A stretch of 10,954 nucleotides of DNA. Source: Bdellovibrionota bacterium. GTDB lineage: Bacteria > Bdellovibrionota_C > UBA2361 > JBIKWN01. Location of the stretch: positions 1-10,954 of the forward strand of contig JBIKWN010000076.1 of NCBI GenBank assembly GCA_044356295.1. Reading direction: 5' to 3'. Below, piece after piece: positions 6,001 through 9,000 of this stretch. Position numbers: made by a program. Numbering within the stretch: the first letter of the stretch is position 1; every line of letters starts with the position of its first letter.

Positions 6001-9000
6001 TTACTCCCTCATTGGTTACTGTGGCTACATCTTTTTTAGGTTGCATAATTTTTACCTATTAATTCTTTGAAGAAAGAGTGTGGATTATATAAAGTAAAGC
6101 TTTCGAAAGGAATGGGTTTGTAACTGCCTAAGAGCTTTATTTATGGTCAAAAAAGCCACAATAATCATGCCGACACATGATCACGGCGAGCTAATACATA
6201 GTTCGATTAGATGTGTTCTGGCACAGACATGTGATGATTTTGAATTTTTCATTATTGGTGATGGAACGCCTGAAATAACAAAACAAATTATAAAGGAATA
6301 TCAACAGAAGGATTCTCGAATCTCGTATTTTGATTTCCCGAAAGGTCCAAGACTTGGAGAAGCATACCGCCATGAAGTGCTGCAAAAAGCTTCAGGCAAA
6401 ATTGTCTGTTATGTCGCAGATGATGACATCTGGCTTCCTCATCATGTTGAATATATGTATGAACTACTTGAAGACAAAGATTTTGCACAAGCTTTTCGTC
6501 TTACGGTGCTCCCTGACGATAAAATCTTTATTGGTGATGGTCATTTTGACGTACCATGGCACAGAAGTGATCTTTTAGCAGGAAGAAATTTTGTTGGGCT
6601 TACTGCTGCTGCACATACTTTGTCGTTTTATCAAAAACTTCCCTTTGGATGGCGAACAACTCCGGTAGGGATTCCGACTGATCTCTATATGTGGCAACAG
6701 TTCTTAAATCAGGACTCATGCCGTCCTGTTACTGGGCTTCGCCCATCGGTTATCGGTTTAGCTCAGGCGTTAAGAAATGAATCATCTTTTGACCAGCGCC
6801 TCGATGAACTACTAAGGTGGGAATCGTTTGCTGGGGCAAGCAATGCCGAACAAAAGGCTTCGGAATTAGCTCTCGATTTTCTTTTATTTAGAAGAGCAGA
6901 ACTCGAGAAAGCATATCAAGAACATCAAATTGCTTACCGTAATCATCTTCAAGTTGTTGCAGATTACGAATCGAAGCTCGCTGCATCGAATCAACCGTTG
7001 AAAGATTAGACTAAATAAACTGAGGGTGGTTTCTAATTCTAAAGATAAAATCCTCACGCTCAGATTCCTCTAAGTCTGCAGGAAACTGTGAATGACTTCT
7101 TTCCCAGCGAGAAAGCCATTTTGCATCAAGCAGAGGATAAGATTCTTTTTTGGCAGCTTCGGCTGTGAGCATCACAGTTGTTTCTGTTTTTTTCCCAGTT
7201 GCACTTCCATATGCTACATAAAATCCAGCAGCAAGAAGAGCAGCTCGAACCCTGGTAGCAGCTGAAAAAGTAAATCCTGACCAAGAACCAGATCCAATCG
7301 ATGCAAAAAGAGTTTGAAAAGTTTTATAGGTCCAAAGAGGGCTATCTACTTTATAAGAAAATGGATCGTAATACACAATATCGGGCAAAGAAGCCGCAGG
7401 ATAGGTTTTCATAAAATCATCAAGGTACAGATTCCACTGAAACTGTTCAGCAGTAATTTTTTTCTGGTTATAAAGCTCTGTGACCCAAGGATGTTGAGCA
7501 TGTGGAAATTTTGCTTTCTTTGATAAAACTAATTCAAGTGGCTCAAGGGTGATTTCAAAGCTTTCAATAAGTAGGTTACAAACTTTCTCTCCTTGCTCTT
7601 TAAGAGCAAGCCAACAAGAAATAGCACCCATCGCATTTGTGGCAGCACCGAGCCCAACATCCCAAATAGTAACTTGAGGTTCTGACAAGAATCTCTCTTT
7701 TAATTTTGCCTGCTCAACATATAATGTATTTGATTCTCGGTAAGGATCTTCTGAGGAGTGCATAACTTCTCCTGAATCTCGGTGTCGAATTGAAACGACA
7801 TATTTATTCTCTCGATTTTTTCTCTCAACAATTTCGTAAATTTTGCCTGGTGTCGTCTCTTCTTCCTCTGAAAATAATTTTCTTGTTTTTTCGTAATAAT
7901 CACCAAAGGTACCTTGCCTGAGGTTGGTGCGGATATCATTCATGATAGCTCCATAGAAATGAATATTATGAAGCCCTATCCAAGAGTGGCTACTTACATC
8001 ATATGTTTTAATTAAGTGATGAAGATAACTTCTGGTGTAATTTTTACAGGTAAAGCAATCACACTGTGAATCGATTGGGTTTTGATCATCAAAGAAGATA
8101 CTTTTTCGAAGATCAATTTTTCCGGTTCGATTAAAAGCAACACCTTGTTGCCCAAGCATCGTAGGCAACACACAATCAAACATATCAATGCCGCGAGAAA
8201 CTGCTTCAAGTATATCAAGTGGAGTACCAACACCCATAAGGTACCGCGGTTTTCCTTCAGGTAAGTATGAAGCAACAAGTCCTGTCATTGCTTCACGCTC
8301 ATCTTTTCCTTCTCCAACGGCAAGTCCACCGATAGCGATTCCACAAAAAGGCATTTCACTAATTGCCTGTGCACTTTCAATACGAAGTTTTTCAAAGCAG
8401 GCACCTTGTACAATCCCAAACATCCCCTGAGTGGAATCCTGCTTAGCAACTAAAGAACGTTTAGCCCAACGATGAGTCAATTGCATTGCTCGTGCTGCAT
8501 CATCATAGGTTGTTGTTGATGGAACACATTCATCGAGAACCATCATGATATCACTTTGGAAAGCTCTTTGTGCTTCGATGCTTATTTCAGGGGATAGAAA
8601 AATTTTTTCACCGTTTACATGATTTCTAAATACGGCACCCTCTTCTGTGATTTTTCTTGCATGAGAGAGAGAAAAAATTTGAAACCCTCCTGAATCGGTA
8701 AGAAAACCGTATGGCCATTTTGAAAACTCACGGATCCCAGTCCCTTTATTAGTAAAGAATGAAGCTCCTGGACGAAGAATAAGATGATAGGTATTAGCCA
8801 AAAGCATTTGGAAACCCATCTGTTCAATTTCACTTATTCGTTGAGAGCGTATTGCAGCATGAGTCCCAACAGGCATAAAAATAGGAGTCTCAACATCTGC
8901 ATGAGCTGTTTTTAAGTGCCCTAACCTAGCTTTAGTAGAGGAACATTTTTTTTGTATCGTGAATGAAACGCTCATTTGGTCTAATGCTGTGTTCTAAGAT

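Follow-up and report, generated by a model that had tools for sequence, protein, structure and literature searches.

What does a bacterium that already has a complete route to queuosine do with a second tRNA-guanine transglycosylase (Tgt), and why should that enzyme carry a methyltransferase at its C-terminus? Tgt is treated as a single-purpose enzyme and, to our knowledge, no 7-deazaguanine other than queuosine has been reported from bacterial tRNA. The gene that raises the question lies at 7011..8975 on the minus strand of a 10,954-nt stretch of a Bdellovibrionota genome, here called the window; all features described below are on this strand, and their positions are those in the window. A survey of the genome had described a second Tgt paralogue joined to a methyltransferase domain of the MnmC type, and the architecture is genuine: in the ORF list and on translation the reading frame is intact, starting at ATG, with zero internal stops, encoding 654 aa and ending at the stop codon 7011-7013, and both domains were matched.

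Gene, domains and genomic setting

The TGT domain (residues 1-370; 7866..8975) was identified as bacterial-type, and as a member of the clade that we call Tgt2, from profiles, PDB matches and a tree. Pfam TGT matches residues 15-366 (441.2 bits, E 3.7e-132); the NCBIfam Tgt equivalog TIGR00430 is passed at 421.9 bits (cut-off 306.75), a score identical to that in the survey, and the best PDB sequence matches of the domain are the T. maritima and Z. mobilis TGT enzymes, with E about 1e-97. An acidic, poorly conserved linker (residues 371-398; 7782..7865) leads to an MnmC2-like class I SAM methyltransferase domain (residues 399-654; 7014..7781), assigned from the NCBIfam MnmC2 model NF033855, AlphaFold2 and Foldseek. 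The methyltransferase had been thought to occupy only the C-terminal ~160 residues, but the domain is complete: NF033855 aligns residues 399-600 with model positions 4-204 of 209, and the fold extends to residue 654. Pfam Methyltransf_30, which matches residues 493-601 (45.9 bits, E 6.6e-12, cut-off 22), spans just the second half of this domain.

The full-length AlphaFold2 model has a mean pLDDT of 93.2 but a pTM of 0.64, which indicates two rigid domains with a flexible joint; residues 373-376 in the linker have pLDDT <50, and at this pTM the model gives no confident inter-domain arrangement and no fixed interface of the two active sites. Both domains are present in 119 of 120 rows among the matches listed (by Pfam, the query being one row), and the named members of the fusion family among these matches are all annotated as plain 'Tgt' or 'queuine tRNA-ribosyltransferase'. 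The protein shares 82% identity across its entire length with an orthologue from a Bdellovibrionota metagenome-assembled genome (MAG). Compared with this orthologue, dN is 0.11 per site in the TGT domain and 0.14 in the methyltransferase domain, against synonymous values of 0.74-0.79, which are saturated; purifying selection acts on both domains of the fusion.

The survey had also placed the fusion alongside a canonical queA/tgt pathway, and this was borne out. The genome contains two TGT genes, the fusion and a separate 370-aa canonical tgt on contig C53, the latter followed by yajC and secD and having QueA 1.7 kb upstream, with one opposite-strand ORF between; QueF, QueA and QueG are all present. 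MnmG is present as well, and the fusion holds the sole Methyltransf_30 domain, and the sole MnmC-type domain, of the genome. The tRNA set is ordinary, with 36 genes that include the four GUN tRNAs, each single-copy, and 12 other G34 tRNAs; no tRNA genes were found within the window. The fusion gene itself is solitary, with neighbours on the opposite strand on both sides.

The transglycosylase domain and its clade

A quick LG+G4 tree of 102 TGT rows, comprising 48 canonical Tgt and 54 Tgt2 representatives, placed the TGT domain of the fusion in a clade B ('Tgt2') that is split from canonical Tgt at an SH-aLRT of 100; the fusion stands apart from the housekeeping Tgt found in the same genomes. 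Members of Tgt2 are 41-46% identical to canonical bacterial Tgt. Among the 54 representatives, 28 are fused to the methyltransferase, 16 have a methyltransferase gene directly downstream and 10 are alone, that is, Tgt2 is fused or adjacent to a methyltransferase in 44 of 54.

The fusion was found in 30 of the 121 genomes of our Bdellovibrionota sample (27 near full length, three cut by contig ends), and a TGT-only second copy, at 49-53% identity, in a further 16. The survey had reported seven of each among 40 genomes; both forms were recovered, with larger counts in the larger sample. The pair, fused or adjacent, which we refer to as the module, was found in Bdellovibrionota, Myxococcota, Leptospira, Verrucomicrobiota, Riflebacteria and MAGs labelled Pseudomonadota. 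A canonical TGT is also present in all 30 fusion genomes of the phylum sample, in all 28 Myxococcota module genomes and in 5/5 module genomes of Leptospira, Verrucomicrobiota and Riflebacteria, so that Tgt2 is always extra to canonical Tgt in the genomes examined. The coupling is not obligatory: 13 of the 16 genomes of the phylum sample that have Tgt2 without a fused methyltransferase lack any member of the methyltransferase family (five were re-checked), and one genome (G025) contains a methyltransferase of the linked clade with no Tgt2 found. We regard the gene as the single-polypeptide version of a conserved two-enzyme module that stands beside the queuosine pathway and does not replace it. 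A conserved neighbourhood was considered and rejected, as a Pfam scan of 61 flanking ORFs at 17 module loci gave no recurring partner. At one locus (L150), truA, encoding a tRNA pseudouridine synthase, lies directly upstream of the module.

In order to compare active sites, we mapped residues by alignment to the Z. mobilis TGT structure 1enu and determined their conservation over the 48 canonical Tgt and 54 Tgt2 sequences. Asp94 (8694..8696), which lies in the DSGGFQ motif of the active site and corresponds to Z. mobilis Asp102, and Asp267 (8175..8177), equivalent to Asp280, which we take to be the catalytic nucleophile of TGT, are 100% conserved in both clades. The zinc site, formed by Cys305, Cys307, Cys310 and His336 (7968..8063; Z. 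mobilis C318, C320, C323 and H349), is 100% conserved in Tgt2, and the four ligands are invariant in an 80-sequence alignment of fusions. In Z. mobilis numbering, D102, S103, Q107, D156, Q203, G229, G230, V233, Y258, M260, G261, D280 and the zinc ligands are present in 100% of Tgt2 sequences, and C158 and L231 in 98%. Tgt2 therefore has the same Asp102, Asp280, zinc site and preQ1 pocket (Cys158, Gly230, Leu231, Val233 and Met260) as the bacterial Tgt of Z. mobilis, E. coli and T. maritima, and the identity, about 45%, implies the same fold. Judged by these residues, Tgt2 appears competent for catalysis and of the preQ1 type. On TIGR00430 the Leptospira fusion scores 457.1 bits.

Three basic residues are different. 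Lys52 is kept in 13%, Arg286 in 4% and Arg289 in 0% of the 54 Tgt2 sequences, whereas each is 100% conserved in the 48 canonical Tgt. The fusion protein has Arg43, Met273 and Gln276 at these three positions, the last two in the stretch M-L-G-Q (residues 273-276; 8148..8159), where the canonical arginines sit at 273 and 276 in the alignment. We take Arg286 and Arg289 to contact the nucleotide 3' of G34, as in the 1Q2R/1Q2S complex, and Lys52 presumably forms a salt bridge at the dimer interface. Further substitutions specific to the Tgt2 clade are M240R, H127Y, S171A and N290Q. In contrast to bacterial Tgt, then, Tgt2 is a separate clade that is always a second copy, lacks Arg286/Arg289 and mostly Lys52, and carries or adjoins a methyltransferase.

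The methyltransferase domain and its family

The AlphaFold2 model of the methyltransferase domain has a pLDDT of 96.1 and includes a predicted N-terminal beta-sheet module, and each of the best nine Foldseek matches in the PDB is an MnmC or MnmC2 structure (E 1.6e-14 to 1.3e-10, TM 0.59-0.70). The SAM-binding motif I, D439-V-G-L-G-A-A-T-N447 (7635..7661), aligns with DVGFGLGYN of Aquifex MnmC2 (3vyw); its residues D439, G441, G443 and N447 do not vary across 80 fusions and 35 family members, and the GxGxG-plus-Asn pattern has been described (PMC3527978). The putative catalytic motif D537-P-F-S540 (7356..7367), in which D537 is invariant, aligns with DAF of Aquifex MnmC2, an enzyme in which Asp-193 is the proposed base, removing a proton from the aminomethyl nitrogen; the nearest characterised relatives of the domain methylate an aminomethyl nitrogen of base 34 via a narrow pocket (PMC3527978).

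The domain thus shares its fold, motif I and the Asp of D-x-F with MnmC2/DUF752 (Aquifex aeolicus, 3VYW) and MnmC (E. coli, 3AWI/3PS9; Y. pestis, 3SGL), but family members are only ~20% identical to these enzymes. The equivalog cut-off of NF033855, 136 bits, is missed by the fusion (78.6-81.4 bits) and by the family members tested (68-102 bits), whereas true MnmC of this phylum and of Leptospira reaches 202-240 bits; in L. adleri the two values are 240 bits for true MnmC and 68 bits for the fusion. In a tree of 100 family rows and six true MnmC domains, the two groups are divided by a branch with support 100 and a length of 1.71 on each side of the root. The survey had taken the C-terminal domain for the methyltransferase half of MnmC; with scores below the cut-off and this long, fully supported branch, we assign it on sequence grounds to a family separate from MnmC. 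The family is never fused to the DAO oxidase and is fused or adjacent to Tgt2 instead. It has invariant residues of its own (H406, W514, T574, G590 and T599-T600) and a specific C-terminal extension (residues 605-654; 7014..7163), conserved in fused and standalone members and helical in the model, in which L616, W620, R623, R626-S627, P632 and H650-P-Q-F653 are conserved. Six aligned methyltransferase domains of true MnmC have mostly gaps at these positions.

The Tgt2-linked methyltransferases form one clade (SH-aLRT 99) of 60 rows, made up of 33 fused, 20 adjacent and seven standalone members, and the same substructure, Myxococcota versus the rest, appears in the separate TGT and methyltransferase trees. 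Other family members are standalone proteins of ~275 aa. No TGT was found within 6 kb at standalone loci L042-L094 (53 of 80 loci), and in five of five standalone-methyltransferase genomes tested the only TGT is a single one of canonical type. Absence of QueA, with preQ1 as the end product, was tried as a marker of such genomes and dismissed, QueA being present in 40/40. When linked and standalone methyltransferases are compared, only positions 482 and 539 are both well conserved and different, too few for a substrate switch to be read from such specificity positions; the small difference argues for the same chemistry in both forms.

In the Bdellovibrionota sample, 36 genomes have the family, 28 have MnmC-type matches, none has both and 57 have neither, and 26 of 28 Myxococcota module genomes lack another Methyltransf_30 domain. 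Exclusivity of this kind in two phyla is the pattern expected if the family does the job of MnmC2, although it may be phylogenetic, because related genomes are not independent. In the Leptospira genus sample, true bifunctional MnmC is also present in 7/7 fusion-bearing genomes, and from this coexistence, together with the scores, we argue that the fused methyltransferase is probably not simply the MnmC of the cell.

Candidate reaction of the module

We favour, at a probability of about 40%, a reading in which preQ1 is placed in an RNA by Tgt2 and N-methylated on its aminomethyl group by the fused enzyme. The N-terminal Tgt2 would be an active transglycosylase that swaps an RNA guanine for the free base preQ1 (7-aminomethyl-7-deazaguanine); the tethered C-terminal domain, related to the enzyme that N-methylates nm5U34 at its aminomethyl group, would then use SAM to methylate the aminomethyl nitrogen of the newly inserted preQ1, which is chemically equivalent, giving 7-(methylaminomethyl)-7-deazaguanosine (mpreQ1), and the physical link may allow methylation to beat QueA to the preQ1 amine. 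The inserted base, the methylated atom, the order of the steps and the RNA target are all things that we infer. The repeated physical linkage, the add-on status of Tgt2, its retained pocket and the retained SAM and Asp motifs count for preQ1 methylation; the standalone family, the exclusivity with MnmC in two phyla, the non-obligatory coupling, the lack of a conserved neighbour and the model without a fixed inter-domain interface count against it, and no residue-level feature separating a preQ1 pocket from an nm5U pocket was found in the sequences compared. A supply of preQ1 for the module is plausible. QueA needs preQ1-tRNA, and the nine of the 36 module genomes in which QueF is not above cut-off all have QueA and so presumably salvage preQ1. 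With QueF in 27/36 and QueA kept in the rest, QueF presence is uninformative as a marker of dependence.

The same logic is known from the DpdA/DpdM system of phages, which makes mdPreQ1 in DNA: preQ1 put in place by an enzyme of the TGT family is N-methylated on its aminomethyl group by another enzyme, as is proposed here, and mpreQ1 is a natural base in phage DNA (PMC10516641). DpdM, however, belongs to the metal-binding DUF3109 proteins, which are unrelated to class I methyltransferases, and acts in a system whose target is DNA, whereas the module has an MnmC2-like methyltransferase and a Tgt2 closely related to the tRNA enzyme. That the module itself modifies DNA, or an RNA other than tRNA (rRNA, for example), much as DpdA-type 7-deazaguanine systems do, would agree with the loss of the arginines on the phosphate-35 side, with methylated preQ1 being so far known only in DNA and with the statement in PMC5699537 that TGT relatives can act on DNA. 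We nevertheless consider it very improbable: there were zero matches to PADLOC defence models, Dpd models included (E up to 0.01), the 17 loci have no conserved DNA-metabolism or defence neighbours, and Tgt2, at its identity to canonical Tgt and with the equivalog passed, is unlike the distant DpdA families.

The main rival is that the domain is a plain, divergent MnmC2, which, like the Aquifex enzyme, converts nm5(s2)U34 to mnm5(s2)U34 on tRNAs such as those for Lys, Glu and Gln. The fusion would then bring together two enzymes that work independently on the anticodon loop, perhaps so that they share the handling of tRNA or are co-regulated, and their chemistries would not be coupled. In its favour, the domain has the fold and motifs of MnmC2, the linked and standalone forms are near-identical at conserved positions, standalone members occur alongside a single canonical Tgt (5/5) and a full Q pathway (QueA in 40/40), and the host genome has MnmG and no other MnmC-type domain; the distribution in Bdellovibrionota and Myxococcota fits as well, subject to the phylogenetic caveat above. 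The accessible part of a preprint (bioRxiv 10.1101/2023.12.21.572861), the only paper found to name the fusion, likewise counts it among 'MnmC2 fusions': one clause mentions TGT-MnmC2 as one of four additional kinds of MnmC2 fusion seen in 968 COG genomes, and no phylogeny, residue analysis or proposed function is given for it. We think this explanation possible but doubtful. The fused domain would be redundant in Leptospira, because true MnmC is present in 7/7 fusion-bearing genomes; all family members tested fall under the equivalog cut-off; and a plain MnmC2 accounts neither for the choice of partner, which is without exception a dedicated Tgt paralogue whose RNA-site residues have changed and never canonical Tgt, nor for the match of the Myxococcota-versus-rest substructure in the two trees. 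The survey's picture of two wobble-base enzymes acting on different tRNAs presupposes textbook substrates for a Tgt2 that has lost Arg286/Arg289 and for a methyltransferase that coexists with true MnmC in Leptospira. Tgt2 might instead act on the same four GUN tRNAs, as an isoenzyme or in preQ1 salvage, with the methyltransferase modifying another atom or nucleotide of those tRNAs, or free preQ1 before insertion. A base pocket identical to that of canonical Tgt and the score on the Tgt equivalog model are consistent with this, as are truA upstream in L150 and the seven of 36 module genomes without QueF and true QueC yet with QueA, which must live on salvaged preQ1. The loss of the otherwise invariant Arg286/Arg289 argues against unchanged RNA recognition, a redundant isoenzyme is not expected to stay tied to one methyltransferase clade across phyla, and the MnmC2-type enzymes so far characterised have tRNA, and not a free base, as their substrate (PMC3527978), which together make such a role improbable.

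Returning to preQ1 methylation, the target may be a guanine that canonical Tgt leaves, either a non-GUN G34, another position or another RNA, at which Tgt2 and the methyltransferase would install an undescribed mpreQ1 nucleoside; this we put forward tentatively, as somewhat unlikely. If it is true, the repertoire of 7-deazaguanines in bacterial RNA extends beyond queuosine. For annotation, domain databases would read the methyltransferase family as MnmC2 even though the MnmC2 threshold is failed. Coupled as it is to an amine methyltransferase, Tgt2 points to the preQ1 pathway having another, so far unexplored branch, and the module, which recurs in several phyla, may make an undescribed methylated 7-deazaguanine in RNA.

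The fusion gene and its setting

The gene at 7011-8975 on the minus strand is one long open reading frame with an ATG start, encoding 654 residues. In Pfam, residues 15-366 matched TGT (441 bits) and residues 493-601 matched Methyltransf_30 (45.9 bits, cut-off 22), and the NCBIfam Tgt model TIGR00430 scored 421.9 bits against a cut-off of 306.75. The survey's finding had given the methyltransferase part 160 residues; it is instead a whole domain, about 255 residues long, because the MnmC2 domain model NF033855, at 78.6-81.4 bits (below its cut-off of 136), aligns over nearly its whole length (model positions 4-204 of 209, residues 399-600). 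An AlphaFold2 model, with 80 fusion homologues as input, was confident for the full-length protein (mean pLDDT 93.2), and its weak linker (residues 373-376 below 50) and pTM of 0.64 indicate two rigid domains with a flexible join. Modelled alone, the C-terminal domain reached a pLDDT of 96.1, and its best nine Foldseek matches in the PDB were all MnmC or MnmC2 (E 1.6e-14 to 1.3e-10), among them 2qy6, 3vyw, 3ps9, 3awi, 3sgl and 3pvc, with spermidine synthases ranking next (E about 1e-7). Compared with an 82%-identical orthologue, the TGT half shows 0.11 and the methyltransferase half 0.14 non-synonymous differences per site, whereas synonymous sites are saturated; purifying selection therefore acts on both halves. 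The fusion gene is real, intact and selected.

The host assembly (2.96 Mb, 128 contigs, 93.6% complete), whose closest named relative is a Bdellovibrionota MAG, contains two TGT genes, namely the fusion and a 370-residue canonical tgt which, as the survey had stated, is followed by yajC and then secD with queA, a single-copy gene in this genome, nearby. QueF, QueG and MnmG are present, a search of the genome for QueH found none, and the Methyltransf_30 domain occurs only in the fusion gene. A 288-residue family-2 glycosyltransferase (6143-7009, plus strand; Pfam) converges on the fusion gene, the two stops being one base apart, and hemC starts at 9007 on the strand opposite to the fusion gene; because both flanking genes lie on the opposite strand, the local context is uninformative about function. 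The ORF list and Pfam also gave, on the minus strand, a small cupin-like relative of dTDP-sugar isomerases (172 residues, 5528-6046) and, downstream, a 644-residue DUF255 thioredoxin-domain protein (3573-5507) and a 537-residue frame with an open end that matched no Pfam family (2-1612); Pfam identified a 564-residue SbmA/BacA-like ABC transporter with ABC_membrane_2 and ABC_tran domains (1609-3303, minus strand), likewise downstream.

Distribution and the Tgt2 clade

When 5.8 billion proteins were searched, both Pfam domains were present in 119 of the 120 matches listed, one of which was the query, and identity to the query among these matches was 46-82%. The named carriers among them are Leptospira, Bdellovibrionales, Oligoflexia, Opitutaceae, Kiritimatiellia, Riflebacteria, Methylotenera and Bacteroidetes MAGs, and all named fusions listed are annotated as plain Tgt or queuine tRNA-ribosyltransferase. 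Within a 121-genome sample of the phylum, the match extended into the methyltransferase part in 30 genomes (27 near full length, three cut by contig ends), and 16 further genomes had a second, TGT-only copy at 49-53% identity. At least one other, canonical TGT was found in all 30 fusion genomes, and a canonical TGT was also found in all 28 Myxococcota genomes with the module (the paralogue, Tgt2, and its methyltransferase, fused or adjacent) and in all five of Leptospira adleri, L. ainazelensis, two Verrucomicrobiota and one Riflebacteria MAG; in the genomes sampled, the module is always an addition to canonical TGT.

Magnesium-transport genes flank the fusion in three of 17 loci examined: MgtE upstream and a P-type cation ATPase downstream in two Leptospira (L141:2769-4178 and 7155-9743; L142:2698-4179 and 7196-9769), and CorA upstream (3852-4961) and CNNM/CorC downstream (7044-8363) in a Pseudomonadota-labelled MAG (L143). 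In a Bdellovibrionota MAG (L150:4173-4976), a TruA-like gene for a tRNA pseudouridine synthase (PseudoU_synth_1) runs in the same direction as the fusion gene and stops four bases short of it.

A quick IQ-TREE tree of 102 TGT representatives (LG+G4, SH-aLRT support without bootstraps) fell into two clades, split at SH-aLRT 100. The canonical clade (48 rows) holds the tgt of the window genome, the canonical copies of the fusion genomes, including Leptospira, and many other phyla, while the Tgt2 clade (54 rows) comprises 28 fused, 16 adjacent and 10 lone proteins; in one genus TGT-only forms are nested within fused ones (support 97-98), a pattern read as secondary loss of the methyltransferase.

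We compared the 48 canonical with the 54 Tgt2 sequences, numbered from the alignment to Z. mobilis TGT. D102, S103, Q107, D156, Q203, G229, G230, V233, Y258, M260, G261 and D280 are 100% conserved in both clades, C158 is at 98% in both, L231 is at 98% in Tgt2 and 90% in canonical sequences, and the zinc ligands are at 100% and 94-98%, respectively. K52, R286 and R289, each present in 100% of the canonical sequences, occur in 13%, 4% and 0% of Tgt2, the window protein having R43, M273 and Q276 at these positions; R286 and R289 presumably contact the nucleotide after G34. Substitutions specific to Tgt2 are M240R (94%), H127Y (87%), S171A (100%) and N290Q (89%). The plain reading of these sequences is that Tgt2 would keep preQ1-type TGT chemistry and the base pocket, and would read its nucleic-acid substrate differently.

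The methyltransferase family and its relation to MnmC2

Queried with residues 381-654, an exhaustive phmmer search returned 1196 representatives at E ≤1e-3, 527 at ≤1e-10 and 117 at ≤1e-30; among the best 150, many are about 275 residues long and consist of the domain from start to end. An alignment of 35 members has invariant H, D-x-G-x-G...N, S-F-E, W, D-P-[FY]-S, W, R and G positions and a conserved C-terminal extension, 'RW.RS...P...HPQF'. A sub-alignment of the family found eighty genome loci, of which 53 (L042-L094), mostly from Bdellovibrionota with a few MAGs labelled as other phyla, are standalone and lack a TGT within 6 kb, and 28 (L091 and L095-L121), from Myxococcota including Anaeromyxobacter, Polyangia and Sandaracinaceae, are fused to a TGT or lie directly after one. 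One member (G004:C68:11783-12703) is in two pieces about 75 bases apart (model positions 3-151 and 147-274), likely a frameshift or a decaying copy.

A quick tree of 106 rows without bootstraps, with six true MnmC domains as the root, separates the family from MnmC by a long branch (support 100). Every methyltransferase linked to Tgt2 belongs to a single clade (support 99), made up of 33 fused, 20 adjacent and 7 standalone members, and the remaining 40 standalone genes form a basal grade. Of the standalone members of the linked clade, three belong to genomes whose Tgt2 is unlinked (G080, G086, G047) and two to genomes that also have a fused copy (L247, G111:C148:5712-6521; L253, G191:C123:1225-1440); in G025, which has another, a search found no Tgt2, and that of G001 is on a long branch. 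Judged from these sequences, the partner of Tgt2 is a family of its own, apart from MnmC.

The evidence points both ways as to whether the family is simply MnmC2, converting nm5U to mnm5U. In favour, the family profile, run against the 121 genomes of the phylum sample, gave 36 genomes with strong matches (above 200 bits, or split), 28 with weak ones (30-72 bits), none with both and 57 with neither; the weak matches are mostly frames of 580-706 residues, and all four checked were true bifunctional MnmC (DAO plus Methyltransf_30). Moreover, 26 of 28 Myxococcota module genomes have no further Methyltransf_30 domain, genomes with standalone genes have one canonical-type TGT (5/5) and QueA (40/40), and only two well-conserved positions distinguish linked from standalone methyltransferases. 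However, true MnmC, found in 21 of 22 genomes of a Leptospira genus sample, coexists with the fusion in all seven fusion-bearing genomes of that sample, and no family member tested reached the cut-off for MnmC2 (79-81 bits for the window protein, 102 for a standalone, 90 for a Myxococcota adjacent and 68 for a Leptospira fused member), true MnmC scoring 202 bits (one checked weak match) and 240 bits (L. adleri) on NF033855.

Proposed reaction and preQ1 supply

MnmC2 methylates the 5-aminomethyl nitrogen of U34; for the Aquifex member, the D-x-F Asp is the proposed base, and the aminomethyl arm is proposed to enter a narrow pocket (PMC3527978). The base preQ1 (7-aminomethyl-7-deazaguanine) has the same -CH2-NH2 arm, classically located at the wobble position, and QueA acts on its amine. 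We tentatively propose, at a probability of about 0.4, that Tgt2 inserts preQ1 and the linked methyltransferase then N-methylates it, giving 7-(methylaminomethyl)-7-deazaguanosine at the same nucleotide; the tether would favour methylation over QueA, a competitor for the same amine. Two consecutive steps on one nucleotide are suggested because a dedicated TGT paralogue is tied to one methyltransferase clade across phyla, and because Leptospira has the module beside true MnmC. The survey had seen two enzymes for wobble base 34 of different tRNAs joined in one protein; its description essentially stands and its interpretation stands in part. The proposed mechanism is weakest at two points, the standalone genes, which are near-identical to the linked ones, and the Tgt2-only lineages (13 of 16 Tgt2-only genomes in the phylum sample, five of them re-checked, lack any family methyltransferase).

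A supply of preQ1 in module genomes is plausible. Of 36 such genomes, 27 have a QueF above its cut-off; QueA is present in each of the remaining nine and true QueC in just two of these, so that preQ1 salvage is implied. The seven with neither (G134, G136, G137, G145, G191, G193 and G214), one of them a single contig of 9.5 Mb, keep Tgt, Tgt2 and QueA and seem to rely on preQ1 salvage. Besides the main QueA (290-414 bits), six of 49 genomes searched have a further, divergent QueA-like gene that scores 155-204 bits, three Bdellovibrionota with a standalone methyltransferase and three Myxococcota with the module (G125:C24:19646-20650, G167:C216:57511-58497, G165:C24:13287-14270, G136:C1:3445168-3446163, G137:C230:97809-98777 and G143:C26:11598-12599).

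A literature search combining tRNA-guanine transglycosylase, MnmC and fusion gave nothing on the topic by title or abstract, and one for mpreQ1 or mdPreQ1 gave only work on phage DNA, the one natural source from which 7-(methylaminomethyl)-7-deazaguanine is known; there it is made by DpdM, an unrelated enzyme (PMC10516641). In passages of a review of deazaguanine crosstalk, 'tgt paralog' denotes DpdA alone (PMC5699537). The TGT-methyltransferase architecture is already noted in print, a passage of 10.1101/2023.12.21.572861, whose supplements may name genomes, mentioning a TGT-MnmC2 fusion without follow-up; not found in the literature searched were Tgt2 as a clade apart, the loss of its arginines, the module as a gene pair, the methyltransferases as a distinct family and the idea of preQ1 methylation. 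We class the fusion as a variant of the known Tgt and MnmC2 kinds, forming a conserved module whose product is putative.
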